Shown here: positions 40,118 through 61,820 of the stretch, in pieces
How positions within the stretch are numbered: the stretch's first letter is position 1
Layout of the letters: each line of letters starts with the position of its first letter
Virus record (IMG/VR): IMGVR_UViG_3300045988_067909
Source of the DNA: a virus
Strand: one strand, 5' to 3'
Length of the DNA stretch: 64,000 nucleotides
Notes under the pieces: model-generated
Seen by the model: the letters and a program-made list of their open reading frames with translations, nothing else
Database searches by the model: none
What the model was told of the DNA's origin: nothing
Program-made: the position numbers and the translations under genes

Positions 40118-42487
40118 TTAACCACCTACTGGGCCATTACCAGGTTCAGAACTGAATGCACCAATAGGTTTAGGATCAAATTCATCTGGTGTTACATTAG
40201 CGATTTCTTCCCATACTTGTTTCTTATAGTTATATTTCTTAGATTTATCCATAGTGTATAATGGTAAACGTAAGAATCTGAATTTTTGATCATTAACGAT
40301 AGTATCATTTTCTTCTACTAATACATTAATGAATTTAGTATATTCAGTTACATAAGCGTCTGGTGTATAACGATCATTTTCATTTGTACGATCTTTATAA
40401 GGGCCATCGATAACATCACCAAATTTACAATTATGAAGTTTAATAACCATAGGTTGTGCGGGTGTTTTAAAATATAGATCATTATCTGTAATATTTAATA
40501 TAGTCATTGCACCACCTTGAGTGATACACTTACCAATCCTACAGTTAGTCAATTCCATGTCTTTAATATGTCTATTATAGATAATAGGAACCATATTACT
40601 TTCTTCTATATTTTGACCTGTACGATCAATTACTACATGTTCGATAGGAGTCTTACTAACTGTCAAATACCTAAATTCACTATTAGCATTGAGCATATCA
40701 ATATCATTATTAGATAAATGCGAACCATCAGTAGCCGACAATACAATATCAACACGCCCGGTATCTCCAGTTTCTACATATAAGCCAGACAATGGGAATT
40801 CTTGGCTACTATATAATGGTCCAGGCATTACACTTAAATCTAATGTAATAGTGTGTTTACCATTAACTTCAGGAGCCGCATTAATATCAAATCCGGCAGC
40901 AAAGAATTTAGGGAAGTCTTGTTCGCACATTTCTAGACGTTTGTTTAATTTCCAAGTGTAGTTAGGGTTTTGGAAGAATATTGTAGTAGATTTACGTATA
41001 CCATATGCTCCATCTAATTTATAGAAATTTGCATTATCAGCTTTAGCATTATTTACAATATCCTCAAAAAATGAAATATTGTTCCAATCAGTGATATCTA
41101 ATTTCACTCTATCACTACCATCAGCAGTAATATCAAAACGATTTTTTAATCTTTGTACCATTGACGCAAGTGCATTTACATAGACAAATGGTGGATCAAT
41201 AGCTCTATTATTTACCGGCAACCAATTAACCCATGAACGTGTTTCATCTACCAAATCTGCTGAATTAATCCATTTCATACTATTGAAATCGAATATTTCA
41301 CTACGATCATAAGTATACACATCAATATCTAAATAAGCTAATTTCTTGATATTAGCAATAATACTATCTGTCATAGCATCAGTTTTCTTTACTAAGATAT
41401 TCATTAATGGATCTTTGATATTTTCACGTACTAAACATAACCATTCAGATGGATCTGGATATGTAAATGTAGGATTAGTTGGGCCATATCCATCAATAAC
41501 TAATGTTTCTGCATCAATGTACACATCAGTTTTAGTATGGTCATATGTTACCGTTTGATAGCCACCGGATGCAGGATCATATTCTAAACCATCTTCACGT
41601 TTAGAATGAGCAAAACCGGCAACTAGATAAAGACCATTAATTTGCACAGATTTACAAATTACAGCTTTGAGTTTACCATGATGACCAGCTACAAAATGGT
41701 CAGCAATAGCAATGGAGTTTCCAACTAGGTTATTATTGATATACCATTTACAATCATACTTAGGAACTGATAATTGGTTTTCTTCCGGTAAAGATGTAGA
41801 GATGTCGAAATGGATCACATTATCATCTGTAGTTACACCAGATTTTTCTAAATGGAAAGTGTCTATAGTTGTTTGATCAACTTTAGTATCTGTAGTGATA
41901 CGGTCATCGGTAAGATGTACTTCCAAATCAAAATCAGAACCACGGTAAACATCAGTTTTAAAATCTGTAATATCTTGACCAAAACCAGTATTACTTAGAC
42001 GATTTGTATTATTTTTACTGAAGTGTAATTTTATCAATGGTTTCTCTAAATTACCATATATAGATGCAACTATAGGATCACTACTATTTTTTAAATCCAT
42101 CAATAATCCTCTATCGTTAGTAATAGCACTGTTTGTAGGCCAAGTCATTTGATACATCATATTATCAGGAACCACATAATCAATTTTATTACTAAGGATT
42201 TCTGTATTATCAGCTTTCATATAATTGTAGCTATTATGGAAGATAAAACCACCAACCATATCAAGAGTACCATTATTTAAACCTCTGATTTCGCTAGTAG
42301 ACTTAATTACATCGGTAACTTTAGTTTGGATTTTAGCTATTTCTTCAGATAAGTTTTTTGTAGTACCACTGGATGGAACACCAGCAGCCTCAATAGCTTT
42401 CTTAGCTTCAGTGATATCTTTTTGTACATCAGCAAAACCAGCAGCGATATTATCAAATATTTTACTAGTTAATGTTTCTTTCGCCAT
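40118..42487 (-). CDS. Putative tail spike or receptor-binding protein, 789 aa (paralog of 37779-40097)
   Basis: GGAGGAGAATA ribosome-binding site. TAATG stop/start overlap with the upstream gene. Shared terminal modules (e.g. ...YNYxxKxWEE...). Confidence 0.55.
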   Translation of the reverse strand: MAKETLTSKIFDNIAAGFADVQKDITEAKKAIEAAGVPSSGTTKNLSEEIAKIQTKVTDVIKSTSEIRGLNNGTLDMVGGFIFHNSYNYMKADNTEILSNKIDYVVPDNMMYQMTWPTNSAITNDRGLLMDLKNSSDPIVASIYGNLEKPLIKLHFSKNNTNRLSNTGFGQDITDFKTDVYRGSDFDLEVHLTDDRITTDTKVDQTTIDTFHLEKSGVTTDDNVIHFDISTSLPEENQLSVPKYDCKWYINNNLVGNSIAIADHFVAGHHGKLKAVICKSVQINGLYLVAGFAHSKREDGLEYDPASGGYQTVTYDHTKTDVYIDAETLVIDGYGPTNPTFTYPDPSEWLCLVRENIKDPLMNILVKKTDAMTDSIIANIKKLAYLDIDVYTYDRSEIFDFNSMKWINSADLVDETRSWVNWLPVNNRAIDPPFVYVNALASMVQRLKNRFDITADGSDRVKLDITDWNNISFFEDIVNNAKADNANFYKLDGAYGIRKSTTIFFQNPNYTWKLNKRLEMCEQDFPKFFAAGFDINAAPEVNGKHTITLDLSVMPGPLYSSQEFPLSGLYVETGDTGRVDIVLSATDGSHLSNNDIDMLNANSEFRYLTVSKTPIEHVVIDRTGQNIEESNMVPIIYNRHIKDMELTNCRIGKCITQGGAMTILNITDNDLYFKTPAQPMVIKLHNCKFGDVIDGPYKDRTNENDRYTPDAYVTEYTKFINVLVEENDTIVNDQKFRFLRLPLYTMDKSKKYNYKKQVWEEIANVTPDEFDPKPIGAFSSEPGNGPVGG

Positions 42488-44532
42488 TATTCTCCTCCAC
42501 GAAGATCTCTAACCATCTTTTCTAATTTAGATAGAGAAGAATTTAATTCATCTCTGGTAATGTATTCGCTAGTAGAAGCAGTTGTTGAACCACCACTAAC
42601 AGGAACCCAACCAGATGCTGTTTTAGTATAGATTGTATTTGTAGATGTAACTAAGCATACAGACCCGTTAGGTGCAGTAGCATCTAGATCAGATACGTTA
42701 GCTACAGGGGCTTTCCAAGTACTAACTGTAGTTACACTAGCACCAGCAGAACCAGATTCGGATAATTCATTAGCAACGAATAAACCATTAGTACCTAATG
42801 TAGCTTTAATGGTGTCATTATACACGAAGTCTAATGCACCACCAGTACCAGGTTTAATAGTCCAGTTTTCACCAATAGTTGCCTTATTAGTAGCAGCATC
42901 GAGTTTAGCTAAGAATTTAAGATCAGCTTCAGCTTTAGTATATGTATCATTCCAACGAGTCTTTTCATCTGTAGTTACAAACTTATGAGTTGCATCTTCA
43001 GTAATCATAGTAGCTGGATGTGTAGCAGGATGCTCATAATTAGTAGCACCCTCTTCGATGCCATCTAATTTAAGCTTATCTTCTTTAGACATCTTACCAT
43101 CAATGGTATTAGTAGCTAATGGGATATTTACGCTAGAGATAGTATCCCATGTAGTACCATTATAACGATAGATAGAACCAGTACTAGTTACAGGAACTAC
43201 CATACCTTTCTTAGGTGTAGTATATGTAGTTGCAATATCACTATAATTAGCAACACCAGGTTTCCAATCCATAGAAGAAGCAACTGCATCAAGTTTAGCA
43301 GTCAATTCTGCATTAGATGGTAAATCACTAAGTTTAGATTTTTCATCTGGAGTCATGAATTTACGATTAGTATCTTCAGTGACAATAGCAGATGGGATTG
43401 CTGTTACATTAACTACAGTTTCAGTTTTACCATCAATGATAGATTCAGAAGCAGTGATACCACTGAATTTCATTTTATATGGTGTAGCTAATGCTGCTGC
43501 TTTAGCTGCTGTACCAGTGATATTAATATCCATGCTACTAGGGTTAGCACCAGCAATAACATGTCCCTCACGGTCTACTAATACTTGACTAAAACTACCT
43601 GCAGTTAGGTCAGTAGAAGTCTTAGGATGTACATATACAGTATCTGTGAATTTAGCATTAGCTGGTACACTAGAACCAACAGTAAACCCACGTACAGTAT
43701 CAGCATCAATATTACCTAAAGATGATCGATCAATTTGTAAATTAGTTACATTAAGATTGATATTACCATTAGCATCAGGTCCTGTAGATGCTGCTGTAAT
43801 TTTACCAGAAGCACTTACAGTCTTTATACTATTAACTGCATTATTGTTTCTCTTAACCCAATCTTTAATACGTTCAACTTCGATATTAACGAATGATGTA
43901 TTAGCAATTTTAGAAGAGATATCTCCAGCAGCAGCTGTTGGTACAGTTGGAGTACCAATGAAGTTAGGAGAATCTTTTAATGCAATATCACCAGCATTAA
44001 GACCAGCAATAGATTCAGCAGACTTAGCTTTAGCTGCAATACCACTAATATTTATATCATAAGTACCAGCTGATAAGTTTGATGGACCAAATTTACCATT
44101 AATAGCACTAGCATCAATAGATGTGACATTTAAAGTTACATTATTAGAACCGTCGAATAAAACAGATGGAGCCGTTACCCCACCTGTAAGTGCAAAGGTT
44201 ACAGTACCTTTAAGTCTGTCAGCAGTCTTAGCTCTCTCTGGAGTAAGACCATATAGAGCATTGTGCACAAATCTAGTAGTAGCAATAGTATCATTCCGAG
44301 TATTCAACTCAGGAGTAGGTGCTGTTGGTCTACCAGTAAATGCTGGATCATTAATAGGTGCTTTGGAATTCCAAAACATTTTTTCGATACCAGTTACATG
44401 AACCTCATTATCATTCATATGTCGATTCAAACTCTTTTGGAGATTTTTATCAGAGCTATTAATGAGTTCCCTCAAATCTGGGGATAAATCATTATAGGTT
44501 ATCAGATCGTATTTTTCATTGAAATCTGGCAT
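42487..44532 (-). CDS. Tail-fibre-like protein, 681 aa, with the family N-terminal motif (HVTGIEKMFWN)
   Basis: Start taken at the internal ATG 7 nt after AAAGGAGG (reverse complement of 44541-44548) rather than the track start at 44571. The motif is shared with the fibre paralogs at 45705-54272. Confidence 0.6.
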   Translation of the reverse strand: MPDFNEKYDLITYNDLSPDLRELINSSDKNLQKSLNRHMNDNEVHVTGIEKMFWNSKAPINDPAFTGRPTAPTPELNTRNDTIATTRFVHNALYGLTPERAKTADRLKGTVTFALTGGVTAPSVLFDGSNNVTLNVTSIDASAINGKFGPSNLSAGTYDINISGIAAKAKSAESIAGLNAGDIALKDSPNFIGTPTVPTAAAGDISSKIANTSFVNIEVERIKDWVKRNNNAVNSIKTVSASGKITAASTGPDANGNINLNVTNLQIDRSSLGNIDADTVRGFTVGSSVPANAKFTDTVYVHPKTSTDLTAGSFSQVLVDREGHVIAGANPSSMDINITGTAAKAAALATPYKMKFSGITASESIIDGKTETVVNVTAIPSAIVTEDTNRKFMTPDEKSKLSDLPSNAELTAKLDAVASSMDWKPGVANYSDIATTYTTPKKGMVVPVTSTGSIYRYNGTTWDTISSVNIPLATNTIDGKMSKEDKLKLDGIEEGATNYEHPATHPATMITEDATHKFVTTDEKTRWNDTYTKAEADLKFLAKLDAATNKATIGENWTIKPGTGGALDFVYNDTIKATLGTNGLFVANELSESGSAGASVTTVSTWKAPVANVSDLDATAPNGSVCLVTSTNTIYTKTASGWVPVSGGSTTASTSEYITRDELNSSLSKLEKMVRDLRGGE

Positions 44533-44611: not shown

Positions 44612-45169
44612 ATGGCAATTAGAAAAGTATTTTTAAATCCTGGCCACGACCCTAAACTTAATGGAAGTGGCTATGCTATCGACCCAGGTGCTGTAGGCTC
44701 TCGCACTACAGAAGCCGAAGTTGTTAAAAAAATTGGTGCATTAGTAAGCCAATATCTTCAAGCTGTAGGTTATGAAACTTACATTATGCAAGATGATGAC
44801 TTAGACGCAGTATGTGAAGCAGCTAACCAATGGGATGCTGATATCTTTGTATCTATTCACTGTAATAGTGCAGAAAATCCAGCAGCTGAGGGTACTGAAA
44901 CATTTACTCATACTAGTGCAGGTCCTAACTCCTTATCTACTAAATTGGCTATTAATATCGACAATCAATTAGTTAATTCTTTAGACTTATATGATCGTGG
45001 TATTAAATCTGCCAACTTCTGGGTATTGCGTAAAACTGATATGCCAGCAGTATTGGTTGAAACAGCATTCATCAATAACCCAAAAGAAGAAGATAAGCTT
45101 ATTAATCAAGTAGATGAGTTTGCTAAAGCTATTGCTCGTGGCATCTCTGATACTGCAGCTCAAGTATAA
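44612..45169 (+). CDS. N-acetylmuramoyl-L-alanine amidase (Amidase_3 family), probable endolysin catalytic module
   Basis: FLNPGHD...DPGA, IHCNS, ETFxHT, DRGIK...NFWVLR...MPAVLVETAFINN match MurNAc-LAA / CwlA-type signatures. GGAGG ribosome-binding site. Confidence 0.7.
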   Translation: MAIRKVFLNPGHDPKLNGSGYAIDPGAVGSRTTEAEVVKKIGALVSQYLQAVGYETYIMQDDDLDAVCEAANQWDADIFVSIHCNSAENPAAEGTETFTHTSAGPNSLSTKLAINIDNQLVNSLDLYDRGIKSANFWVLRKTDMPAVLVETAFINNPKEEDKLINQVDEFAKAIARGISDTAAQV

Positions 45170-45177
45170 TCTATATC

Positions 45178-45612
45178 ATGAATACTGCTGCCGATGTAGA
45201 AAAAGCTCTCCAAATAGATACCGTACCGTCATTAAATTCAGAAGAAATTCAATATAATGGTAATATAGTAGCCTATCAAGGAGACTATTATATCTTTATC
45301 GACGGTAAATGGTCTAAGTTAGGTAAACAGGTATCATCTAGTACTAGTAGCCTAACTGAAAATGAAATAGAAGATATGGAGCCTGAAGAAATGGATGATA
45401 CTGGTAAACCATACTACAAATCTAGAGTATACTTTTACCCTCTAAATATAATTAAGATAGTAACTGTAATATTCTGTGGTATAGCTTTAATGTATTCTTT
45501 ATTCATTCAATCAGAGACTGTAGCGGCTACACTTGCTGGTGGGTTATTAACCTATTTGAGCCGTGGTAGTTCTGGATCTACTACAAACAATTATCAAAAG
45601 AATGATAAGTAA
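45178..45612 (+). CDS. Membrane protein, 144 aa (candidate holin-like partner of the amidase)
   Basis: Hydrophobic helix IVTVIFCGIALMYSLFI. Weak ribosome-binding site. Adjacent to the amidase. Confidence 0.45.
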   Translation: MNTAADVEKALQIDTVPSLNSEEIQYNGNIVAYQGDYYIFIDGKWSKLGKQVSSSTSSLTENEIEDMEPEEMDDTGKPYYKSRVYFYPLNIIKIVTVIFCGIALMYSLFIQSETVAATLAGGLLTYLSRGSSGSTTNNYQKNDK

Positions 45613-45704
45613 GAAAGATATAAGCCCTAATGGTTATATGCCATTAGGGCCATCTTTTGGCTTACTTGAACATCCCAGTAATTCTAAAATAGGAGGTTAA
45701 AACT

Positions 45705-46736
45705 ATGCCAGAGCAAATCAATTATGATTTAGATAGAGACAAGCTTGGTTTAAATGAGCTTAGTCTTAAACTGCGTGATATGGTTACAAAATCATTTAAT
45801 CATACTAAAGATGATGTAATACATATCACTGCAGAAGAGCGAGCATTATGGAATACTGTAGCAACTATTCCTAATGTAAGCAATAATAATAATGGCTTTA
45901 TGTCTATAGCTGATAAAGTTAAATTAGATGGAATAGAAGAGCAAGCCAACCATTATGTACACCCTAAGAAACCTAATGCTGTTCCTGGTAACTATATTAC
46001 AGTAGATATTGATGATGAGGGCCATGTCACTCGTGGATATAACCCAACTAAGTTGCCTATTACTGTAGATAATGCTGATAGATTAGGTGGGTTAGTACCA
46101 GGAGACTTTGCTCCTATAGCTAATCCAATCTTCTTAGGTAAACCACAAGCACCGACTCCAGTAATTAGTGCTGACAGTACCAAGATGGAAATAGTCAATG
46201 TGAAGTATTTAGAATCTCATATCTTCCCTTATGTAAGATCTCGTGTAGAACCAACTGGTGATGGAGAAAATCTATTCTGGATTGATTCTACAAACATCTT
46301 AAGCTCTTATAGTAAAGAAAAGAAATGGCATTCTGTATATACAGAAGCTAGTAAGTATATGCTTGCATTAAATGAAAAGATTGATGTAAATACTCAGCCA
46401 TCTGACTATGCAGCATATCTAAAGTTCTATGGACAAAAGAAATTATCTGCATTAAACTTAGATACAACTATTACTGGTGCTAGAACTGAAGAGTTTGCTA
46501 CAGTAATGGGTATGAGAGCTGTTGACCAAGATATCTCCCATGAGTTTATCTTTATTGGTAACGACTTATTCATCCGTAGTGGTGCAGATAACTGGGATAG
46601 CCTAGTTAAAATCTTTGATAGCAACGATGAAACTATAGCAAAAACTAAGAAAGCTATGGAATTTGATATAGATAACGGAAGCCTAGTAGTTAATAGTGGT
46701 GGTAAGAAATATAAAGTCACCCTAACTGAGGTATAG
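45705..46736 (+). CDS. Tail fibre or receptor-binding protein paralog 1 (343 aa)
   Basis: AGGAGG ribosome-binding site. N-terminal HITAEERALWN then FMSIADKVKLDGIEEQANHYVHP then GHV..GYNP module shared with four neighbours. Confidence 0.65.
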   Translation: MPEQINYDLDRDKLGLNELSLKLRDMVTKSFNHTKDDVIHITAEERALWNTVATIPNVSNNNNGFMSIADKVKLDGIEEQANHYVHPKKPNAVPGNYITVDIDDEGHVTRGYNPTKLPITVDNADRLGGLVPGDFAPIANPIFLGKPQAPTPVISADSTKMEIVNVKYLESHIFPYVRSRVEPTGDGENLFWIDSTNILSSYSKEKKWHSVYTEASKYMLALNEKIDVNTQPSDYAAYLKFYGQKKLSALNLDTTITGARTEEFATVMGMRAVDQDISHEFIFIGNDLFIRSGADNWDSLVKIFDSNDETIAKTKKAMEFDIDNGSLVVNSGGKKYKVTLTEV

Positions 46737-46746
46737 GAGGTTTATT

Positions 46747-48054
46747 ATGTCATATCATGATAGACAAAGTCTAAATCAAACTATTCCTAGGCATATATCC
46801 AAACAGGAACTATCTCCATCATTACGTAATCGTATACAAGATGAGTATGATCATATATACAATCATACTCTACATATTACAGAAGAAGAACGTTATAGAT
46901 GGAATCAATCAGCTAAACGTGTACTTAAACCAGCTACTGTATATGCTGATGGGTTAATGACTAAAGAAGATAAAGCTAAATTAGATAGTATCGAAGTTAA
47001 AGCTAATAAATACGTGCACCCATTCTCTAATGTAACACCTGGTAGTTATCTTGAAGTGACTACTGATGGATTAGGGCATGTAATATATGGTAATAACCCA
47101 GCTAGACTTAATATAAGAGCTAGAAACGCTACTAAGTTAGGTAATATAAACCCAGATGAATTTGTATCACCTAATAATGCATTCCTAAAGGGTAATGTAT
47201 CATTTAGAAAGTATCCTAATGATATAGATCATCTTAATTACCCTATAACTAAGAAAGATCTAGTTGACCAATCATTAACTACAAGCTATTATATTAGTGA
47301 TGACACTACGCCTAATCTGAATAAGATTAGAATTAGTCCGACTACAAATGTAGCATCTTATTATGATGCTGACTCTAATAGCTGGGTTAATATAACTCTA
47401 CCTAATAATATTGCTAGATTAGATTCTAATGGTAAAGTTCCATTGAATCTTATGCCAACACAAGGTCTTCCTATAGGAGCTATTATACCAACACTAAGTG
47501 CTAGTATAGATCTTATGAAAATAGATGGATTCTTACCATTAACTGGTATTGAAGTGATGAAGAATGAATACTTAGATTTATATAACTTTGCTAAGTCATC
47601 TAATATACTTGTACCATATTCTGAATATAGTAAGTTTGAACGATTACCATCTATTGGATTCTTCTTTGATAATGGTAATACTTTCATATTACCTAAGTTA
47701 AACGATTTCTTATGTGCTACTAGCAATATTAGTGATACTGGTAGATACACTCCATCATGTACACCTAGACAGACTAGTACGTTTAATACTATGGCTAAGA
47801 ATGACTTCCTAAAAGAGTTTGACTATAATAATAGAAATGCTGTAAATGAAAGACTATCTTGTTATACTGGTGCATTTAGAATGGTGGACAGTTTAGGTCA
47901 GGCAACTAGTGGTGGTGGTTTTGTAAGAGCTAGAAATATTAATAATAATATATTACTTACAAAGTTCAATTCCAATGAAGGAAATGATAATGACTGTACT
48001 ATAAATGAACCAGCTCATTTTAATACTATATACATGATTAAAGCTAAATACTAA
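46747..48054 (+). CDS. Tail fibre or receptor-binding protein paralog 2 (435 aa)
   Basis: HITEEERYRWN, GLMTKEDKAKLDSIEVKANKYVHP. C-terminus ...IYMIKAKY. Confidence 0.65.
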   Translation: MSYHDRQSLNQTIPRHISKQELSPSLRNRIQDEYDHIYNHTLHITEEERYRWNQSAKRVLKPATVYADGLMTKEDKAKLDSIEVKANKYVHPFSNVTPGSYLEVTTDGLGHVIYGNNPARLNIRARNATKLGNINPDEFVSPNNAFLKGNVSFRKYPNDIDHLNYPITKKDLVDQSLTTSYYISDDTTPNLNKIRISPTTNVASYYDADSNSWVNITLPNNIARLDSNGKVPLNLMPTQGLPIGAIIPTLSASIDLMKIDGFLPLTGIEVMKNEYLDLYNFAKSSNILVPYSEYSKFERLPSIGFFFDNGNTFILPKLNDFLCATSNISDTGRYTPSCTPRQTSTFNTMAKNDFLKEFDYNNRNAVNERLSCYTGAFRMVDSLGQATSGGGFVRARNINNNILLTKFNSNEGNDNDCTINEPAHFNTIYMIKAKY

Positions 48055-48068
48055 AGAAAGGAGAAGCT

Positions 48069-49445
48069 ATGTCTAAAGAGCAAGATGTAATAAAGTGGTG
48101 GCTATCCTATTCTGAAGAAGAAGCTAAACGTCGTAAAGAAGAATGGCTAGATGAGCACAATAAGTCTAGGCTATATAATGAAGTATTAGATAAGCTAACA
48201 GAGAAAGAGTTTAATACTGTATTACATAATACCATCAACGATATAAGATTCCATATGACTGATTCTTTTATGCATATATCTAAAGAAGAACGTGATACTT
48301 GGAATAAAGTCACATATGAATCTTTAACCAAGACAGTATCCGCAGAATCTGATGGTCTTATGTCTAAAGAAGATAAAAAGAAGTTAGATGATATACATGA
48401 AGGTGCTAATAACTATACTCACCCTAAATATAGACCAGTAACGTCTTATAAATTTAAGAAAGTTGATGAGTATGGTCACATCTATGGTTCATCTGAACCA
48501 GATGTATTACCAGTGACTGTAGACTCTGTAGATACATTGAATGGTAAACCTATTGAGTATTTTGCTAAGAATAATAACCAAATATTCAATAATATAACTG
48601 TGCCAGATGTAGATATCTCTACAGCTAAAGATAATACAGCTATTAATTATAAGACAATGAAGTCTTATGTATTAGATGGTGCTATACAAGTTACTAATAG
48701 TAATACAAATCTTGATACAAGAAAGCTTTGGTATAATACTAAAGATAATAAAGCATACTATTATCAAAGTAATATATGGAAACCATTCTCTATACCAGAT
48801 AAACCTGTGACATATAATGATAATGGGGTTATAGACAGCTCTTTATTACCATTAGTAGGATATCCTATAGGGTCTGTAGTTACTGTATATGGTAATACTA
48901 TCCCTCAAGGGTGTTTATTATTAGATGGATCCATTATATCTAAGGCAGACTACCCTAAATTATGGGATAGAGTATCACGATACTATAAGATAATATCTGA
49001 TAACGAGTATAACTCTTTACCATATGAGCATGCTACTACATACTTCTCACTTGTAGCATCAGATTCTGATAAATTTAGATTACCTAATTTATACAATCTA
49101 CATTTAAGACCTACGAGTGAAACTAATAAGCAAGGTGCACTACAACCTAACGCTAAACGTGCTAATATATATGGTACATTCCCAGTGACCCCATTTAATG
49201 GATATTCATTTCCGGAAGATATCGCACTCTATAATAAATATCCTATCGTTAAATGTGAACAAAGACCGATGACTACGTTTAGTTATGGGTCACCATATTA
49301 TAATGAATGGGGTTATATGGGTTATGAATATGCTAATAAGAATCGTGAATCATTAGACAATTACTATAAGCCTATAATAAATGAATCTAGTCAAGGTTTC
49401 TCTCCTAGATCTGTAACTGTTTTGTATTGTATTAAAGCTAAATAG
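48069..49445 (+). CDS. Tail fibre or receptor-binding protein paralog 3 (458 aa)
   Basis: HISKEERDTWN, GLMSKEDKKKLDDIHEGANNYTHPKY. C-terminus ...LYCIKAK. Confidence 0.65.
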   Translation: MSKEQDVIKWWLSYSEEEAKRRKEEWLDEHNKSRLYNEVLDKLTEKEFNTVLHNTINDIRFHMTDSFMHISKEERDTWNKVTYESLTKTVSAESDGLMSKEDKKKLDDIHEGANNYTHPKYRPVTSYKFKKVDEYGHIYGSSEPDVLPVTVDSVDTLNGKPIEYFAKNNNQIFNNITVPDVDISTAKDNTAINYKTMKSYVLDGAIQVTNSNTNLDTRKLWYNTKDNKAYYYQSNIWKPFSIPDKPVTYNDNGVIDSSLLPLVGYPIGSVVTVYGNTIPQGCLLLDGSIISKADYPKLWDRVSRYYKIISDNEYNSLPYEHATTYFSLVASDSDKFRLPNLYNLHLRPTSETNKQGALQPNAKRANIYGTFPVTPFNGYSFPEDIALYNKYPIVKCEQRPMTTFSYGSPYYNEWGYMGYEYANKNRESLDNYYKPIINESSQGFSPRSVTVLYCIKAK

Positions 49446-49454
49446 GAGGTAGCT

Positions 49455-51167
49455 ATGGGTGACTTTAATAATGAACTAGATAAAATTAATAAAACCGAAT
49501 TAGCTTCCCCGTTATCTAAGCTAATTAATGATGGCTATGCTCATATGTATAACCAAAATATGCATACATCTGAAAATGAACGTGATGTATGGAATAAAGC
49601 AGCTAATACTGTACTGTATAAAGCTAATATAGATTTGAATGGATTACTATCTAAAGAGGATAAAGAGAAACTAAATTCTATAGAGAGTGGTGCTAATAAC
49701 TATACTCACCCTAAATATATACAATCTAATGCTGGTACGTATATATCTACAGTATCAGATGATTCTGGTCATGTAATATATGGTAGTAATCCAACGTTCT
49801 TAGATTGTACTGTAGAGAATGCAACTAAGCTTAAAGATACAATCTTTGGTGAATTTGTACGTGCATCTAATCAAGTATTTGGGGATAATGTAACAATAAA
49901 TCCTAATAGCGATGTATATGATGGAACACCTGTTACATTTAAAAACTTTAATGATTATAGATTGGATAAAGCATTCAATAAATCTATAGCTATATCTACA
50001 GATGACGATTCATTATTTGCTCAAGATGGTACATCTAAGTCTATACATTATGGACTAAATAATGATATTGTAATATATAAACGTACTGTATCATCATTAA
50101 CAAGCTATTCATTGGTTAATTCAGCAAATACTATAAAACTAGTAAATGGTAAAATACCAATTAGATATATTCAAGATGATGGTGTGCCTATTGGTACTAT
50201 ACTATTCTGGTTAGGTTCTAATATACCTGATGGATATTTGCCTATGAATGGTATGGCTGTACAAAAATCATTAGTACCAGAGCTTATTGAATATGCTAAT
50301 ACTAATGGTCTATTAGAAAACTGGAATAATATGATGGAAAATAAGTACTACAATGCTAAGTTTGTACTAAAAGATGATAAGTTATATATGCCGACTTTTA
50401 ATAGAGCCATTACTGTATCAGCAAATAATAATAGAACGCTATCTGGTAATATTTCTGAATGGATTACTAAATATATCCGTGGTACATTCCAAGTAGCATC
50501 TGGTGCTATACAGTGGAACCCTGGTCCTAATGAGTTCAACTCTAAACAGGATACTGGTGAGATTCACGTAAAGAACGATGATGGTACAGATAAATTCTTA
50601 ATTCCAGATCCATCTACAGATATTGGGCAAACATATTTAACTATGTATGATAGTGGTGCTGTAGTATCAGCTGGTGATGATATGGCACCAGCTATGATGA
50701 CTGTAAATTATATTATCAAAGCATCATCTACAGGGCTAAAACTAAATTACGTTAAACAACTAAGTTACGATTATTATAATATAGATAATGGTAACCAGGT
50801 TAGATTTAGCGATGTATTAGACCATATCAAGTGTAATAATCATAGACCTATTGTTGATGTGACTATAAGTAATAGAGGTATAGCTTTTAGTAACTCAGCA
50901 GAGATTGATGGGGTCTATGATAAATTACGTTATGAACGTTTAAATCCATATAGACAGTTGATTATTCGAGGTTTGGGCAAATCAATCTACTATCCATATA
51001 GTGTAGATTTAAACGAAAATAACTTAATTACTATTGCAGAAAACAAGGTTCCTAATAGTACATTTACTATTCAGGTGTCAAAGGCCGATCCATATGATAG
51101 AATGGAAAAGTTTGACAGTTTAAAAACTAGACTTGCTAGTTATGGAGTAACGCTAGTAAAAGTATAA
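49455..51167 (+). CDS. Tail fibre or receptor-binding protein paralog 4 (570 aa)
   Basis: HTSENERDVWN, GLLSKEDKEKLNSIESGANNYTHPKY. ...NYIIKAS segment. Confidence 0.65.
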   Translation: MGDFNNELDKINKTELASPLSKLINDGYAHMYNQNMHTSENERDVWNKAANTVLYKANIDLNGLLSKEDKEKLNSIESGANNYTHPKYIQSNAGTYISTVSDDSGHVIYGSNPTFLDCTVENATKLKDTIFGEFVRASNQVFGDNVTINPNSDVYDGTPVTFKNFNDYRLDKAFNKSIAISTDDDSLFAQDGTSKSIHYGLNNDIVIYKRTVSSLTSYSLVNSANTIKLVNGKIPIRYIQDDGVPIGTILFWLGSNIPDGYLPMNGMAVQKSLVPELIEYANTNGLLENWNNMMENKYYNAKFVLKDDKLYMPTFNRAITVSANNNRTLSGNISEWITKYIRGTFQVASGAIQWNPGPNEFNSKQDTGEIHVKNDDGTDKFLIPDPSTDIGQTYLTMYDSGAVVSAGDDMAPAMMTVNYIIKASSTGLKLNYVKQLSYDYYNIDNGNQVRFSDVLDHIKCNNHRPIVDVTISNRGIAFSNSAEIDGVYDKLRYERLNPYRQLIIRGLGKSIYYPYSVDLNENNLITIAENKVPNSTFTIQVSKADPYDRMEKFDSLKTRLASYGVTLVKV

Positions 51168-51195
51168 TTTTTAATCAACCGGAGGGTTAGTGTTT

Positions 51196-51828
51196 ATGAA
51201 CTATTTAATCAATCAAGTGAAAGCTCACTTGAAGATTATTATTGCTTTTATCGTGATTATCTTAATTTCTTTACTGACTATATTGTATTTTAAGCATGAA
51301 GCTAATGTAGAAGCTAATCGTTATAGAGAGATTCTTGATAACGTAACTAAGACTGCAGAATACAATAAAGAGTTAGCTAAAGAAAATAAAATAGTGATGG
51401 CAGCTATTGATGACTTACGTAATAATAAGCCAGTAAAAGAAACCATTACTAATAATAATACAGATACTATAAGATACATCGAGAAGACTTCACCAGAAGA
51501 TCCTGATGTAGTTGTCAATAAAGAAAAAACTGCCAGTATTAGATATAATGGAGAAACTTTCAGTACACCCTTACAATCTTCTGCGGCATCTAGTGTAGCC
51601 AAGGAAGATGGTACAGTAGAAATTAAACAAAAAGACGAAGTTGTTATTGACGTAACTGATATAGCTAATAGACAAATTGCTGCTCATGATTTAATGAGAG
51701 ATAAAGTCGAACAAGAGCTACGTGATGACGTCAAGAAACTTAAACATGAAAACAGAAATTACAAGATAGCTGGTGTAGCTTTAGGTACCGCTGGTATAGG
51801 GTATGCAATCTATAAGGCAAAGAAATAG
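51196..51828 (+). CDS. Membrane-anchored coiled-coil protein, 210 aa
   Basis: ATG 9 nt after GGAGGG. N-terminal transmembrane segment IIIAFIVIILISLLTILYF and C-terminal hydrophobic IAGVALGTAGIGYAIY. Confidence 0.55.
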   Translation: MNYLINQVKAHLKIIIAFIVIILISLLTILYFKHEANVEANRYREILDNVTKTAEYNKELAKENKIVMAAIDDLRNNKPVKETITNNNTDTIRYIEKTSPEDPDVVVNKEKTASIRYNGETFSTPLQSSAASSVAKEDGTVEIKQKDEVVIDVTDIANRQIAAHDLMRDKVEQELRDDVKKLKHENRNYKIAGVALGTAGIGYAIYKAKK

Positions 51829-51884
51829 GTCAATTAGGTGAAACATAAAAATAAGTCTTTATTTTTATTAAAGGTGGTGATGAA

Positions 51885-52682
51885 GTGGACTTTGAAGGTG
51901 CTACTGGTGTACTTTCTATGGTTAAAGATATAGGTGCTATAGAATTTATTCTAATCTTGCTAGTGGCATATGTAATCTACTCCAACCATACCAATACCCG
52001 AGCAATTCTACAATTATCAAGAAGAGAAGAATCAGCTAAGCCTTCTGATAAGTCAGTACAATCTGAAGAAGCTAGAATGATCAATACTATGATTGATGAT
52101 ATGAATCAGCACCCATATACATTAAATAAACTAAATGAGACATATACCAAAACAAATACATTAATCAAACACAAACTCAAAGAGACTGCTGATACACTTG
52201 GAGCTGAACGTATTTGTGTGTATATGTTTCATAATGGTGAGCATTCGGTTAATAATATACCTTTCTTAAAGACCACTTGTATTTGTGAATACATAGATAG
52301 ACATAAAGGGGCAACCAGTCTACTTATGACTCACAAAGGTGTACCTATTAACTTAGCTAGTGACTTATTTAAGCGTATCAATAATCATCAGATTACAGTA
52401 TTGTATCCTGATGATGAAAACGTTATTGATAGAGTCATGGCAAACTTCTTCTATAGAGAGAATGATAATAGAACTACAATAGTGGTTACTATATATGACT
52501 CCTCTAACCAACTGGATGAAAAACCAGTTGGTTTTCTAAGTGCAGATTTTGAATTTGACCATAGGTTAAAAAGTGAAGAACTTAAAGACTACTTCACTGA
52601 ACTTGAAGAGCTAGCAGACTACTTATCAGTATCTGTATTAATTAGCTATCTTTTCTTTCAAACTAAAAAGGAAAAAGAATAA
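51885..52682 (+). CDS. Hypothetical membrane protein, 265 aa
   Basis: GTG 5 nt after AGGTGGTG. N-terminal transmembrane segment. Confidence 0.5.
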   Translation: MDFEGATGVLSMVKDIGAIEFILILLVAYVIYSNHTNTRAILQLSRREESAKPSDKSVQSEEARMINTMIDDMNQHPYTLNKLNETYTKTNTLIKHKLKETADTLGAERICVYMFHNGEHSVNNIPFLKTTCICEYIDRHKGATSLLMTHKGVPINLASDLFKRINNHQITVLYPDDENVIDRVMANFFYRENDNRTTIVVTIYDSSNQLDEKPVGFLSADFEFDHRLKSEELKDYFTELEELADYLSVSVLISYLFFQTKKEKE

Positions 52683-52697
52683 GGAGGAAGTTCTTTC

Positions 52698-54272
52698 ATG
52701 TCTAAACCCCAATTACTTAATAGACTGAAAAACAAAACTGATTTAGTTACCTCTGGTAATCTGTTACAGTATTCTGATACTACGGGTAGATTAGTAGAAG
52801 ATACTGGTTTAAATGCCCAGCAGATTAAAGCAGCAACGCTAAACAATGCCAATATCGTTAGTCACTTAGCTAATGATGGTATCCATGTAACTAGAGAAGA
52901 AAAGAAGTTTATTACACAAGATCATACAGATCTTAATAACCACTTAGTAGACGCATCCTCACATATTAGCCCGACAGATAGGGCTAATTGGGATGCCAAA
53001 GAAACCCCTGAAGGTGCACAAGCTAAAGTTAATATGGCTGCTGCATCTTTTAATAGACATATGGCTACCAAATCTATTCACGTTTCTAATAGTGATAGAT
53101 TGTCTTGGGATGATAAATATACTAAAGCTGAGATTGATAATAAGTTTGTACAGCTAGAATCTAATAATACTTGGAAAGAAGCTGTAGATACTTTTAGTGA
53201 GATTGATATTATGTATCCTTCTCCTCAGCGTGGTTGGACTGTATCTGTAAATGATACTAATATTACATTCCGTTATGATGGTGATAACTGGATTCCTATC
53301 TCTAGTAACGCTGTACCTATGGCTACAGCTGCAGTAGATGGTCTTATGTCTAAAGAAGACAAAGCTAAATTGGATACAGTAGAAATGGGTGCTAATAACT
53401 ATGTGCACCCTAATAATCCATCTACAAGACACGTATCTGATAAGGAGAAAGCATTCTGGTCAGCTAAGGCTGAAGACCGTAATGCTACTTATCAATATGC
53501 TGGTCTTATGTCTAAAGAAGATAAGTATAAATTAGACAATATTGAAACTGGTGCAACTAACTTTAGTATGCCTAGCAAATTAGACCCAACTATTATTGAA
53601 ACTGATAATGATCATTTATTCGTTACATTGGAAGAAAAGACTAATTGGTCTAATAAAGCAAGCAATAACTTAGTTACACCAAATGTAAATGGTATTATGT
53701 CTAAAGAAGATAAGATTAAACTTAACTCTGTAGATATGAATGCCAACTATTACATTCATCCACAAACGCATGACCCTTCTATTATCTTAGAAGATGCTAG
53801 TCATAGATTTGTAACTGATGAACAAATCTTAGCATGGAATAATAAATTAGATGGTTCTTTAGCTACAGCCACTTCTAATGGTGGTATGTCTAAAGAAGAT
53901 AAAGCTAAGTTAGATTCCATCGAAGAGGGTGCTAATAAATATAAGCTCCCAGCACAATTACCACCAACTATCATTGCTCAAGACCCTAATAATAGATTCT
54001 TTACTGATCAAGAAAGACAATCTCTTGCTGATAAGAAAGACTCTAAAGCAATCCTATTAGGTACAGCAGAGTTCAATGGTAGAACTGGTACTATTATCCC
54101 ACATAGCTTTGAGAATACATCATTCTCTGTAGCTATTACTCCAACAGCAAACCCTAATGGTTTGATTGGTGAAGTATGGGTTAAGAAAACTAATACAGCA
54201 TGTATCGTATACTGCTCTGGTGCAGGGGATGCTAAAATCCCATTCGATTATATGCTGATTTATTATAACTAA
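52698..54272 (+). CDS. Fibre-like protein made of 5-6 tandem copies of the family repeat unit (524 aa)
   Basis: Repeated H[IV][ST]xx[DE][RK]xxW[ND] and G[LIG]MSKEDKxKL[DN]x[IV][ED]xGA[NT]x[YF]xxP units. Confidence 0.65.
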   Translation: MSKPQLLNRLKNKTDLVTSGNLLQYSDTTGRLVEDTGLNAQQIKAATLNNANIVSHLANDGIHVTREEKKFITQDHTDLNNHLVDASSHISPTDRANWDAKETPEGAQAKVNMAAASFNRHMATKSIHVSNSDRLSWDDKYTKAEIDNKFVQLESNNTWKEAVDTFSEIDIMYPSPQRGWTVSVNDTNITFRYDGDNWIPISSNAVPMATAAVDGLMSKEDKAKLDTVEMGANNYVHPNNPSTRHVSDKEKAFWSAKAEDRNATYQYAGLMSKEDKYKLDNIETGATNFSMPSKLDPTIIETDNDHLFVTLEEKTNWSNKASNNLVTPNVNGIMSKEDKIKLNSVDMNANYYIHPQTHDPSIILEDASHRFVTDEQILAWNNKLDGSLATATSNGGMSKEDKAKLDSIEEGANKYKLPAQLPPTIIAQDPNNRFFTDQERQSLADKKDSKAILLGTAEFNGRTGTIIPHSFENTSFSVAITPTANPNGLIGEVWVKKTNTACIVYCSGAGDAKIPFDYMLIYYN

Positions 54273-54358
54273 TCAACAAAATAATATAGACTTGGGATGA
54301 ACACGGATCCTAAGAATATCTCTTTTTACTACAATATTACTAAAACTTTTTTAGATGA

Positions 54359-54383
54359 CCCATATAGGCATTGCCTATATGGG
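54359..54383 (+). terminator. Hairpin CCCATATAGGC-att-GCCTATATGGG
   Basis: 11-bp perfect stem after the 524-aa gene. A T-run lies upstream and a modest T-content downstream. Confidence 0.45.
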
Positions 54384-54485
54384 TTATCTACTGTCTCAAT
54401 ACAATGAAATATAATTTTGGATATATATTATAACTGTGTAGTAATTATAGTAAATTTGTTTTATAGTTAAGGAGGAACAATTACT

Positions 54486-59084: not shown

Positions 59085-59191
59085 TATACTATAACTGTGT
59101 ATGGTAGATACAGCTATTCGTAGTAGCTGTATCTAAATATAGCCATACACTTGTAGACTATAAGTCTACTTGCCGAAAGGAGGTGACTCCT
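59085..59191 (+). promoter_or_regulatory. Conserved cassette leader, copy B (TTGTAA -35-like, TATATACT -10-like, nested inverted repeats, AAAGGAGGTGA)
   Basis: Near-identical to copies A and C apart from the loop of the large inverted repeat (tattcgtagta). Confidence 0.6.
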
Positions 59192-59398
59192 ATGGCGAAT
59201 CCGGGATGCGTAGGTAACTACGCTAACCAATTAGCGGAACGTTCAGCCAATGTTGGCTGGATGATCCGCTATTGCCAAGATATAATCTATGATTATGTCT
59301 ATGGTAATAACGGTGTAAGTTTAGCCGAAGCTAAAAAAGCTGAAGCTTACTTGCTCCAACACGGTATTAGTCTCACTGTTGATCTAGACAAAGTCTAA
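59192..59398 (+). CDS. Small paralogous protein B (68 aa; MANPGCVGNYANQLAERSAN...), unknown function
   Basis: Same N-terminal 25 aa as A. The remainder aligns at about 35% identity. Confidence 0.7.
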   Translation: MANPGCVGNYANQLAERSANVGWMIRYCQDIIYDYVYGNNGVSLAEAKKAEAYLLQHGISLTVDLDKV

Positions 59399-59477: not shown

Positions 59478-59584
59478 ACATACTATAACTGTGTATGGTA
59501 GATACAGCTGGCAGGCTATAGCTGTATCTAAATATAACCATACACTTGTAGACATAGTCTACATGCCGAAAGGAGGTGACTCCT
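59478..59584 (+). promoter_or_regulatory. Conserved cassette leader, copy C
   Basis: Same architecture as A and B. The loop of the large inverted repeat is tggcaggctata and the small palindrome is GTAGAC-ata-GTCTAC. Confidence 0.6.
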
Positions 59585-59785
59585 ATGGCAGGATGTGTTA
59601 TGAATTACCATAATACATTAGCAGAAAGATCTACCAATTTAGATTGGCAGATCAGAACTGCTATAAGCCTAGTGATTGATCGTTACTTTGATATTAACAA
59701 TGTAACGCATCATGAAGCTATTAAGGCTTATCGATTCCTTAAAGCACAAGGAATCAAATTACCTATAACTGAAAATCACTTATAG
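59585..59785 (+). CDS. Small paralogous protein C (66 aa; MAGCVMNYHNTLAER...NVTHHEAIKAYRFLKAQGIKLPITENHL)
   Basis: About 65% identical to protein A. Confidence 0.7.
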   Translation: MAGCVMNYHNTLAERSTNLDWQIRTAISLVIDRYFDINNVTHHEAIKAYRFLKAQGIKLPITENHL

Positions 59786-59860: not shown

Positions 59861-61084
59861 TTATTTTAAACCAAATGCTTCCATAGGATCCATCTCAACC
59901 ATTCTAACTTGGCTATCATGGAATGCTTTCATGGCAACGTTCTTAAGTTTAGATGCTATTTGTGGAGCAGCAGCACCAATATTCTTTACTCCTAGACGAT
60001 AGAAGATATTACCAGCACACGCATTACAAACACCATTCTCAGCCTCACATAAAGAAGCAAATCTAAACTGTACTGTTTTACCAATATATTGATTCATATT
60101 CTCAGAAGTCAACTCTACCAGTTTATTTCCTTCTTTCATAAAGCAATAGATGTATTCTTTTATATTGTCTTTATTTAGAGTGATTGTAATAGTACGTTTA
60201 GTACCACAGTCACTACCCTTGTCTAATGTCTGAATGTGTTGACATGCTGGCAGTAATAGTTTTTCCCAATAGCCACCAACTTCTGTACGGCTAGCACGAG
60301 AGTAAGGACCTTCGGCTAGAGAGTTAGCAAAGTCAGCATAGTCTTCTTTAGATATACCTGTCATATAGTTAGACATAATGATATTATAACCCTTAGTCGG
60401 ATCTGGGTTTTTAGTAATACCACGAACAACAAACATGTTTTTGAAATGGTTACTCATATTAGATTTAGCACCACTATTATAAGTATCCATAGCTGGGTCG
60501 TCTTTAAGAATCTCTTCAGCTAAGTCTAATAGTTCTTCTTGAATCTTCAATACTATTTTAGGATCTTTAGCATCTAACTCTTTACGATATTTCTTAATAA
60601 GTTCTTCTTTAGCCTTATTGATTTTTGTCGTAATAGTCAATAGTTTCATACTATAACTAGTAGACAATATATTTACATAAGGCATGAACTTTTGACCTTT
60701 CATAACAAAGTCTTGCATAACTTTAAGAGTCTTTCTATTCTCTAGAATAGCATATGAGATCTCTTGCATAATATTACCAACCATCTTCTTGGTAATTGGT
60801 TTATTGATATACCCAAACATATCAAACAAGTCTTTCTCGATGAATACTCTATTGAATACCCATAACCCTACAGTTGTAACAAAAGCATTCTTATTCTTTT
60901 TTCCTTCTGGTCCATATGAGCCAGCTGGAATAGTAACTAAATCATATGTATTGAATCTACGTTTACCGTTAAATTCACCAAACATGCCAATTACTGTAGA
61001 AGTCTTAGCACCCATATCTTGATCTATAGATAGGATATAATCTATATCTTTAGCATTAGTAATTCTATTAGATGTACGTTTCAT
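59861..61084 (-). CDS. Hypothetical protein, 407 aa, with a C-terminal Cys cluster (C-x5-C-x2-C)
   Basis: AAGGAGGTAATACGATATG ribosome-binding site on the minus strand. Confidence 0.65.
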   Translation of the reverse strand: MKRTSNRITNAKDIDYILSIDQDMGAKTSTVIGMFGEFNGKRRFNTYDLVTIPAGSYGPEGKKNKNAFVTTVGLWVFNRVFIEKDLFDMFGYINKPITKKMVGNIMQEISYAILENRKTLKVMQDFVMKGQKFMPYVNILSTSYSMKLLTITTKINKAKEELIKKYRKELDAKDPKIVLKIQEELLDLAEEILKDDPAMDTYNSGAKSNMSNHFKNMFVVRGITKNPDPTKGYNIIMSNYMTGISKEDYADFANSLAEGPYSRASRTEVGGYWEKLLLPACQHIQTLDKGSDCGTKRTITITLNKDNIKEYIYCFMKEGNKLVELTSENMNQYIGKTVQFRFASLCEAENGVCNACAGNIFYRLGVKNIGAAAPQIASKLKNVAMKAFHDSQVRMVEMDPMEAFGLK

Positions 61085-61202: not shown

Positions 61203-61820
61203 ATGGACTCTAATTTTAATAAAGAAAATAAAGTCTCCTATCAAGAGCTGGCCCCTAGTTTACAGGCGATGCTTGATGGTAAGGCTAGTGTTACAGTTCT
61301 TAATAATCATATTAATGACAATGCACGACATATCACTAACGATGAACGTGCTAAATGGAATGCTACATTACAAGACGCTAATACATGGGCTAAGAACTAT
61401 GTAAATGGTCTTTTAGGTGACTTTGGTGGTCAAGGTGTAACTTTGATGGATGTAGTCAAATCTAAATTAGATAAGACTGAATTCGAAAACTTTAAACGTA
61501 CATTAGCACGTATTGCTTTTACTGGTTCGTATAATGATCTTATTGATAAACCATCTGGTATCTCTTTCTCTGATACTGCAAATAAAGCTTTGAATGCTGA
61601 TCGTGCAACTTTAGCAGATAGAGCTACTGTAGCTGACCGTGCAACTAATGCTGACTTAGCGGAAAATGCTAAACGTGTTGGTGGTATTCGTGTAACTATT
61701 GATGGTACTGCTCCAGCTAACCCTGAAAATAATAAAGAAATCTGGTTCAATACCACAAACTTGACAGTTTACTTCTACGTAAATAATCAATGGAGAATGA
61801 CTCGTTGCGCTGTTGCATAA
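61203..61820 (+). CDS. Small tail-fibre-like protein, 205 aa, with the family N-terminal motif (HITNDERAKWN) and ADRAT tandem repeats
   Basis: GGAGGAGAAATAAATG. NADRATLADRATVADRATNADLAENA. C-terminus ...RMTRCAVA overlaps the radical-SAM start. Confidence 0.65.
   Translation: MDSNFNKENKVSYQELAPSLQAMLDGKASVTVLNNHINDNARHITNDERAKWNATLQDANTWAKNYVNGLLGDFGGQGVTLMDVVKSKLDKTEFENFKRTLARIAFTGSYNDLIDKPSGISFSDTANKALNADRATLADRATVADRATNADLAENAKRVGGIRVTIDGTAPANPENNKEIWFNTTNLTVYFYVNNQWRMTRCAVA

Follow-up and report, generated by a model that had tools for sequence, protein, structure and literature searches.

A putative multi-fibre receptor-binding gene cluster, diversified by recombination, in an uncultivated jumbo phage distantly related to AR9

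Do adjacent fibre genes that share an N-terminal part encode a set of receptor-binding proteins on a common anchor, or do the shared parts have a more general explanation? This question is raised by a stretch of viral DNA of 64,000 nt (IMG/VR virus record IMGVR_UViG_3300045988_067909; the whole stretch is termed the window below), which contains a tandem array of fibre-like genes between positions 45705 and 54272. An earlier interpretation made from the letters alone (the sequence-only reading) regarded the array as a cassette system, in which one anchor presents different receptor-binding heads and thereby broadens the host range. The analyses described here lead to a related, more restricted view, to which we assign a probability of about 0.62: the region is probably a multi-fibre receptor-binding gene cluster, diversified by recombination, in a ~260-kb phage distantly related to AR9 and PBS1.

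The five open reading frames (ORFs) at the center of the earlier interpretation exist, each with a strong ribosome-binding site. They are g45705 (45705–46736, 343 aa), g46747 (46747–48054, 435 aa), g48069 (48069–49445, 458 aa), g49455 (49455–51167, 570 aa), and g52698 (52698–54272, 524 aa), all on the plus strand. Two additional genes, g42487 (42487–44532, minus strand) and g61203 (61203–61820, plus strand), had been thought to carry the same module. For all seven fibre ORFs, the ribosome-binding site is an AGGAGG or GGAGG motif 6–9 nt upstream of the start.

The four tandem genes g45705, g46747, g48069, and g49455 are paralogs that have in common an N-terminal module of ~150 aa. In an alignment of the modules, the pairwise identities were 34–38%, 28 columns were invariant, and the BLASTP E-values ranged from 1e-18 to 1e-39. 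A six-frame regular-expression scan of the 64 kb found the motifs HxTxxERxxWN, GLMSxxDKxKLD, GHVxxGxNP, and YxIKA confined to the fibre genes, including g42487 and g61203. Together with the BLASTP values, this excludes the concern that the shared motifs are a low-complexity coincidence. In the DNA, the GLMSxEDKxKLD unit forms a family of eight direct repeats with 62–74% identity, and one inverted copy is present in g42487. The complete module is limited to the four array genes; in g42487 its motifs are dispersed, and g61203 contains only the first ~55–70 aa. The N-terminal ~55 aa are the part that is common to all six genes, that is, the four array genes, g42487, and g61203.

Does the module represent a common anchor? 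The HxTxxERxxWN unit matches the receptor-binding protein Gp15 of the Listeria phage PSA (6r5w, E=3.6e-07), the structure of which is that of the receptor-binding domain (PMC9710869). The GLMSxxDKxKLD unit matches the side-fibre protein FtbO of monocin (9j1l, E=1.7e-04), a trimeric rod (PMC11830787), as well as the stem part (profile positions 186–239) of the phi29 head fibre family, for which a weak match was also found in g45705. An exhaustive search with a profile of the module across 1.84 billion cluster representatives retrieved 8008 proteins at E<=1e-3, of which 322 reached E<=1e-30. The majority of the 8008 proteins, which are up to 2900 aa long, contain profile positions ~40–125 many times over (up to 20 copies), usually at internal locations, and many of the distant homologues carry the phi29 head fibre domain PF11133. 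The center of the module is therefore best regarded as a generic fibre-stalk repeat. Only the first ~20–40 aa are specific for the clade, and they would be the sole plausible dedicated docking element; the first ~40 aa had no match in Pfam, PHROGs, or the PDB. Of the common anchor that had been proposed, a short N-terminal segment is thus the part that could be a specific docking element, and the rest is mostly stalk.

The distal parts of the proteins had been described as unrelated to each other. This description fits g45705, which has a different C-terminal half, but not g46747, g48069, and g49455, the distal parts of which are homologous, consist of a collar plus a tip, and align with each other past the module up to residue ~290–380. 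The Pfam domain Collar (PF07484) was detected in g48069 with a score that passes the gathering threshold (E=6.3e-06, 26.5 bits, cutoff 24) and in g49455 below the cutoff (E=0.0057). On its own, g46747 also stays below the threshold, and it aligns with the heads of the other two proteins. Among the 11 alleles of this and related strains, nine matched the Collar family. A profile of the heads matched PDB entries of the T4 gp37 tip collar (2xgf, E=2.2e-05) and of a short tail fibre (9cuy, E=3.6e-05), and weakly T4 gp12 (1pdi/1ocy, E 0.36–0.4). The matches fall on two segments, the collar start PIGxI...P.G.L..G (more fully, PIGxI...(I)P.G(W/F/Y)L..(D/N)G...K..YP.L) and the terminal strand. In the latter, ...IYMIKAKY, ...LYCIKAK, and ...NYIIKAS of the three proteins align with ...LNYIIKVK of gp12, ...MYIIKT of 9cuy, and ...NYIV of gp37. 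Throughout the 11 alleles, I431 and A433 of this strand are invariant, and Y429 and K432 are nearly so.

In T4 gp12 and gp37, the polypeptide chain exits the collar, builds the receptor-binding tip, and comes back to close the collar. Given this chain path and the alignment of the terminal strands, the Y[MC]IKAK motif is therefore the closing strand of the collar, and the candidate tip consists of the ~90–100 residues that separate the two halves of the collar. The motif had been reported to form the end of several of the proteins, which is correct for g46747 and g48069; in g49455 its counterpart YIIKAS is internal, at residues ~419–424, and is followed by ~146 further residues. That the array encodes proteins of the fibre or receptor-binding type, as proposed, is in agreement with the Collar domain, with matches to tail-fibre PHROGs, and with the similarities to the T4 gp12/gp37 collar, PSA Gp15, and FtbO.

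The three collar genes follow the same plan. In g46747, the module (residues 1–156, 46747–47214) is followed by a spacer, the N-terminal part of the collar from GLPIGAI onward (residues ~240–320, 47464–47706), the tip (residues ~321–421, 47707–48009), and the closing strand ...NTIYMIKAKY (48010–48051), as delimited by the profile and allele alignments. The g48069 protein starts with an N-terminal extension of 29 aa; its module is encoded at 48156–48620, its collar from GYPIGSV at ~48864, and its tip at ~49104–49403, and it closes with ...VTVLYCIKAK. For g49455, the corresponding positions are 49455–49910 for the module, ~50187 for the collar start GVPIGTI, ~50430–50687 for the tip, and 50709–50723 for YIIKA of the closing strand ...TVNYIIKAS. 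The extension of ~146 aa beyond the closing strand (50728–51164) is conserved between strains and matched no family; a role in assembly or as a chaperone-like domain is conceivable but speculative.

The remaining two of the five central genes differ from this plan. In g45705, the module (residues 1–150) is followed by a fibre motif of the PxFxGxPxAPT type at residues ~140–170 and by a clade-specific C-terminal half, for which no match in Pfam, PHROGs, or the PDB was found with sequence or profile and no relation to the collar heads with hhalign. In a MAFFT alignment, g45705 and g49455 looked similar at their ends (FDIDNG/YNIDNG and VTLTEV/VTLVKV), which was attributed to chance, as the local score of 30 equals the mean of shuffled sequences (29.9). 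The g52698 protein, a repeat-rich fibre, has a unique N-terminus and a beta-rich C-terminal region of ~75 aa. It had been described as being built almost entirely from five to six tandem motif pairs, which overstates the case. It contains four pairs and three additional units of the first-motif type, which together span ~320 of the 524 residues (~60%). The three additional units (HxS/TxxD/ExxxW type) are located at residues 63–138 and are followed, at residues ~150–205, by a small beta domain that is similar to the N-terminal part of the GVE2 tailspike (7chu). The four pairs, each 54–63 aa long and consisting of GxMSKEDKxKL[DN]...AN/TxY/F plus H/RxFxTxxE..., occupy residues 207–445. The GHVxxGxNP unit is missing from g52698. 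The protein also matches 6r5w and 7chu in the PDB as well as the Pfam family Phage_head_fibr (PF11133; E=1.7e-10, 41.3 bits, cutoff 24.6), the latter at profile positions 203–239, which correspond to the stem.

To which phage does the locus belong? The window has a G+C content of ~33%, and a megablast search of the region against 50,697 records of isolated phages yielded no near DNA match. An ORF at 59861–61084 (minus strand, 407 aa) encodes a fragment-sized, beta-type subunit of a split multisubunit RNA polymerase that is 33–36% identical to the proteins of the Bacillus phages AR9, PBS1, and BpSp. The source is therefore an uncultivated, distant AR9-like jumbo phage. Contigs related to the window, which were drawn from IMG/VR, Logan, and NCBI, reach 260–269 kb, and the clade of ~260-kb AR9-like phages recurs in human-associated metagenomes.

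Comparison with close relatives revealed where the fibre genes vary. In strains with flanks that are 97–99% identical to the window, the g45705 protein is 89–99% identical, and the identities of the g46747, g48069, and g49455 proteins go down to 61–70%. The pattern is clearest for the strain L006. Outside of the fibre block, its flanks are 98–99% identical to those of the window, and the N-terminal module of g46747 is 94–100% identical; the amino acid identity of the g46747 head and tip is 24–45%. Across all tips it is 24–50%, and in the tip stretch of g49455 48–60%. The alignable DNA identity is 13% at 47501–48000 and 14% at 49001–49500, and it returns abruptly to 97–100% in the final ~270 nt of g49455, so that the last ~100 residues of this protein are 94–100% identical despite the replaced tip just upstream. 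These values show that a diverged block of ~3.6 kb has been exchanged. In two closer strains, L007 and L009, the tips hold small patches with 82–85% DNA identity.

The Nei-Gojobori omega values were 0.03–0.08 for g45705, 0–0.11 for g52698, and 0.1–0.5 for the collar fibres, with the highest values in the tips. Both the synonymous (pS) and the nonsynonymous (pN) divergence are higher in the tips, and the raised synonymous divergence therefore points to the import of diverged segments by recombination. All array copies appear to be under purifying selection, with omega well below 1. A programmed switch, that is, an invertible segment, a shufflon, or a diversity-generating retroelement, was rejected because suitable DNA repeats and near-identical cassette borders are lacking: between 37000 and 55000, no long near-identical repeats were found in either orientation, only the motif-level repeats with 62–74% identity. 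The heads are the most variable part between strains, a pattern as expected of a host-range repertoire.

Beyond these close strains, the related loci share a conserved frame. It consists of a g42487-like fibre gene on the minus strand, the lysis genes, a g45705 orthologue, zero to three further module genes, orthologues of the genes at 51190 and 51885, and a g52698 orthologue. The window represents a type with four module genes (343, 435, 458, and 570 aa), three with Collar heads and one with a head without assignment. Four module genes (355, 803, 493, and 662 aa), with three Collar heads, are also present in L039. Six loci (L018, L049, L050, L054, L061, and L062) have two module genes, of 293 and 350–378 aa, and in L050 the second one carries a Gp10_C domain (E=1.4e-17). 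L002 has two as well (211 and 424 aa), the second with a Gp53-like_C domain (E=1.2e-3), and L019 has a single one (191 aa) in which no head was found. The g45705 orthologue is present in every related locus, shortened to 191–211 aa in L019 and L002, and so is the g52698 orthologue, with 46–60% identity. The g42487 orthologues range from 603 to 1678 aa; the longest, in L039 (2737–7773, minus strand), contains 16 stretches matching the module profile, which shows an expansion of the stalk repeat inside one protein. The fibre ORFs are intact in ~20 independent contigs.

At the level of the clade, these comparisons show one N-terminal module joined to predicted Collar, Gp10_C, Gp53-like_C, or unassigned heads, with genes gained and lost. 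The proposal of a cassette system is therefore retained in this sense, with one to four genes per locus; it does not apply to the window itself, in which three of the four heads are homologous, nor does it extend to a programmed system. The comparison with related phages that had been suggested as a check for cassette shuffling shows different heads on the module and genes gained or lost between relatives; among the close strains, blocks and patches of the collar fibres are replaced, and g45705 and g52698 are kept.

From these observations we propose the following explanation. The genes g45705, g46747, g48069, and g49455 would be ancient tandem duplicates, each most likely encoding one homotrimeric short fibre with three parts. 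The N-terminal element of ~20–55 aa, which recurs in g42487 and g61203, would probably dock all of these proteins on one kind of site, located either on another fibre or on the baseplate. The stalk would be composed of a helix-turn-helix-type HxTxxERxxWN unit plus a GLMSxEDKxKLD unit, a YxHP...GHVxxGxNP beta hairpin, and a PxFxG-type unit. The third part would be the distal head, in three of the genes a T4 gp12/gp37-type collar with an inserted variable tip that is closed by the ...YxIKAK strand, and the tip would touch the host surface. The g45705 and g52698 proteins would be the conserved members of the fibre set, the latter with a stem repeat, of the type known from the phi29 head fibre, in four copies. 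Diversity would arise by homologous recombination, which imports diverged blocks or patches and is anchored in the conserved flanks, and by whole genes being added to or lost from the array in different lineages.

Comparison with known systems shows common features as well as peculiarities. As in T4 gp12 and gp37, the heads have the collar start, an inserted tip that is variable, and the return to an ...NYIIK(V/A)K strand. In contrast to the T4 proteins, three collar genes are arranged in tandem behind a common N-terminal module, the tips have no detectable similarity to T4 tips, the shafts are predicted to consist of Gram-positive-type helical stalk repeats instead of beta-structured ones, and g49455 runs ~146 aa past the closing strand. 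In phages with multiple receptor-binding proteins, such as CBA120 (TSP1–4), the Klebsiella phages PhiK64-1 and RaK2, and SP6 and K1-5, tandem genes also encode proteins with conserved N-terminal and divergent distal parts, and the distal parts are exchanged between relatives. Those proteins are beta-helix depolymerase tailspikes, whereas the proteins analyzed here are predicted collar-plus-tip fibres, and among their four heads, three are paralogous to one another. The arrangement that we propose is of the kind known from the monocin side fibre (an FtbN hub, FtbO, and three FtbP trimers), in which a single hub receives several distinct trimers whose N-terminal latch domains resemble each other (PMC11830787). 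The motif ...GF(M/L)SxxDKxK(I/L)D of FtbO and ...HVTATDKTNWNAKE of PSA Gp15 match the proteins of the window at the motif level. In the phage analyzed here, no FtbN-like hub was found, paired-histidine iron sites are missing, and the N-termini are predicted to be helical (in low-confidence models) instead of beta-hairpin latches. Furthermore, monocin and PSA have siphovirus-type tails, in contrast to the presumably myovirus-type tail of a jumbo AR9 relative. Neither T4 gp10-like (XD) attachment domains nor latch hairpins were detected at the N-termini of the proteins; Gp10_C was found only at the C-terminus of the protein of a relative.

Several results weigh against our explanation. The module is to a large extent a generic repeat, so that its sharing alone does not imply a common anchor, and no candidate for a hub or adaptor protein was identified. 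None of the seven proteins contains the HxH motif that binds metal in the stalks of gp37, gp12, and FtbO. AlphaFold2 (AF2) was applied to monomers only and gave poor models, from which no conclusion about the fold was drawn: the mean predicted local distance difference test (pLDDT) score was 42.6 for g45705 and 51.6 for g46747 (based on a 16-sequence alignment), with values of 76–90 in the collar region and below 40 in the inserted tip. A Foldseek search of the PDB with the g46747 model returned nothing significant, the best match being a T4 gp12 chain (5iv5_AI, E=0.63). In tblastn searches against isolated phages, g46747 had no match and g52698 and g42487 had only short motif matches, so that none of these proteins has an orthologue backed by a proteome. 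Positive or diversifying selection was not demonstrated, as the average omega is below 1 in every segment. Lastly, the sole host hint is weak: a 12.9-kb contig (L066, CALISH010000151.1) with a 95% identical N-module locus was binned in a metagenome-assembled genome named 'uncultured Solobacterium sp.', and binning can misplace phage contigs.

Could the proteins have other functions? They might chiefly have a structural role at the periphery of the baseplate, like T4 gp10, gp11, and gp12, which are also encoded by tandem genes and have related C-terminal domains. The N-terminal module would then serve assembly, and one or none of the four proteins would set the host range. The Gp10_C baseplate domain on the array member of a relative, the similarity of the collar heads to gp12, a baseplate-bound short fibre, and the strong conservation of g45705 are in line with this possibility. 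However, few loci in otherwise near-identical genomes vary as much as the collar genes, and within these the tips vary most of all, which is unexpected for purely structural parts; with one to four genes in the relatives, the copies are individually dispensable; and T4 gp12 itself binds a receptor. We thus regard a purely structural role as unlikely. That the four proteins are joined in series to form a single long composite fibre is very improbable, although the tandem, co-oriented, and closely spaced genes with common repeats resemble the T4 long-tail-fibre operon with its arrangement gp34-gp35-gp36-gp37. Three of the four proteins have a closed collar with an inserted tip, which in T4 occurs only on the distal, terminal gp37 and on gp12; the N-terminal element shared by all four suggests one docking partner rather than a head-to-tail chain; and relatives manage with one, two, or four members.

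Attachment to the capsid, as fibres or decorations like phi29 gp8.5 and without a role in tail adsorption, has to be considered at least for g52698, on the basis of its Phage_head_fibr match, the weaker one of g45705, and the presence of PF11133 on many distant homologues. In gp8.5, the capsid-binding N-terminal base comprises residues 1–110 and residues 117–280 form a fibrous helix-turn-helix supercoil (PMC6542822). The similarity of the GLMSxEDKxKLD unit is limited to the fibrous stem (structure 3QC7, profile positions 186–239), and for the base, a double beta-barrel, no profile match before position 186 was obtained with any protein. Capsid attachment is therefore not implied, and the proteins, which are 343–681 aa long with other domains attached, are not full members of the head-fibre family. 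In addition, the Collar domain and the matched PHROGs belong to tail-fibre families, and the stem motif is also found in side fibres of tails, for example in FtbO of monocin, so that a location on the capsid is improbable. The least credible possibility is that the similarity is only a by-product of generic repeats and old duplications, and that the genes form no functional set, with some copies perhaps decaying or unexpressed. The occurrence of the central motifs in 8008 cluster representatives, usually in multiple copies, and the identity of just 34–38% between the paralogs could be explained in this way. Every copy, however, has an intact ORF and a strong ribosome-binding site, the ORFs are intact in the independent contigs as well, and the omega values in every segment indicate purifying selection. 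A cluster of several receptor-binding fibres remains the explanation that we prefer.

The other fibre genes of the window may contribute to the same set. The composite, large fibre protein g42487 (681 aa, ATG at 44532, GGAGG upstream) matches the tail-fibre PHROGs 7032, 2631, 4209, 454, and 4549. It consists of the N-terminal ~55-aa element, two PxFxGxPxAPT...IAxTxFV motifs, two 7chu-like beta domains, and a C-terminal helix; YVHP...GHVIAGANP is located at ~300–338, and there is one unit of GKMSKEDKLKLD plus HKFVTTDEKTRWN, with GKMSKEDKLKLD at ~478. The small fibre-like protein g61203 (205 aa) matches tail PHROGs and combines the N-terminal element of ~55–70 aa (...HITNDERAKWN; profile positions 11–70, 30 bits; E 1.5e-6 to g46747 and 1.5e-5 to g42487) with the motif GSYNDLIDKP, with ADRAT repeats, and with a short beta domain at its C-terminus. 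The final 31 nt of g61203 are overlapped by the start of a gene for a radical SAM/4Fe-4S protein (61790–63010, plus strand, 406 aa). Between the array and g52698, two conserved plus-strand genes (51190–51828, 212 aa, and 51885–52682, 265 aa) encode proteins with a hydrophobic N-terminal segment and without a family match. Their orthologues in L002, L018, L019, and L050 (29–46% identity) invariably have the variable array on one side and the g52698 orthologue on the other.

Two large minus-strand genes next to g42487, g37779 (37779–40097, 772 aa) and g40118 (40118–42487, 789 aa), are paralogs with 24% identity over ~800 aa. They have no relatives in Pfam, PHROGs, or the PDB, and none were found among isolated phages with tblastn of g37779. 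The family comprises the classes A to D, which are 24–43% identical to each other; the g40118 slot is occupied by a gene of class B, C, or D, or in some genomes by both C and D. In L003, L006, L007, L011, L014, and L020, 0% of the DNA in this slot can be aligned, and in L009 it is 98–100% identical, so that the gene is swapped whole between genomes that are otherwise 97–99% identical. Judged by these alignments, the slot is the clearest whole-gene cassette replacement of the region, and it may weigh as much for the host range as the array. A far-reaching extension of our explanation would combine both: the N-terminal ~20–55 aa would be a universal plug that docks up to seven fibres (the four of the array, g42487, g61203, and perhaps g52698) on one branched hub, and the block and patch exchange in the collar fibres plus the whole-gene replacement in the g37779/g40118 family would retune the host range in human-associated populations. 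We consider this extension doubtful; if it were true, with a universal plug and two layers of exchange, the g40118 family would be a new class of receptor-binding protein.

The genomic context is that of a tail and lysis region. The surrounding genes match virion structural protein PHROGs, and in an ORF of 3196 aa (5019–14609, plus strand) a Phage tail lysozyme domain was detected (E=1.2e-27), together with a weak match of the Peptidase_C39-like type near residues ~2500–2800; the product is probably either a giant lysin associated with the tail or a tape-measure-type protein. The lysis genes lie between the divergently oriented fibre genes g42487 (minus) and g45705 (plus). The first (44612–45169, plus strand) encodes an endolysin with an Amidase_3 domain (E=2e-42) and matches to endolysin PHROGs, and the second (45178–45612, plus strand) a holin-like membrane protein; both are syntenic in relatives. 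Behind them follows a strong, bidirectional hairpin (45623–45651). Terminator-like hairpins were found only there, before the array, and at 54291–54314, after g52698; the spacing between the four tandem genes is 9–14 nt, and it is plausible that the genes from 45705 to 52698 form one transcription unit. With 69 sigma-70 promoters found versus 75.6 expected, a scan for promoters was uninformative, and no tRNA genes were found in the window. Additional observations were a 19-nt palindrome at 54352–54390, downstream of g52698, and two adjacent small plus-strand ORFs (59183–59398, 71 aa, and 59576–59785, 69 aa) that each start with MTPMA... and look like paralogs.

The principle of multiple fibres with a shared proximal and a variable distal part is already well known, and the conceptual gain is modest. 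What is new is that a familiar fibre strategy, which combines familiar components, namely stalk repeats of the Gram-positive type and collars of the T4 type, is found in a previously uncharacterised jumbo-phage lineage. The HxTxxERxxWN and GLMSxxDKxKLD motifs, identified as stalk repeats, and the ...YxIKAK motif, assigned to collar closing, could otherwise be mistaken for specific anchors or tags. The analysis provides the first domain-level annotation of the putative adsorption apparatus in this uncultivated ~260-kb AR9-like clade. The resulting map separates the parts that are conserved between strains (g45705, g52698, and the stalk module) from the variable ones (the three collar tips and the g40118 slot), and it points to segments that may be used as binding probes and to natural recombination joints, for host finding or the engineering of host range.

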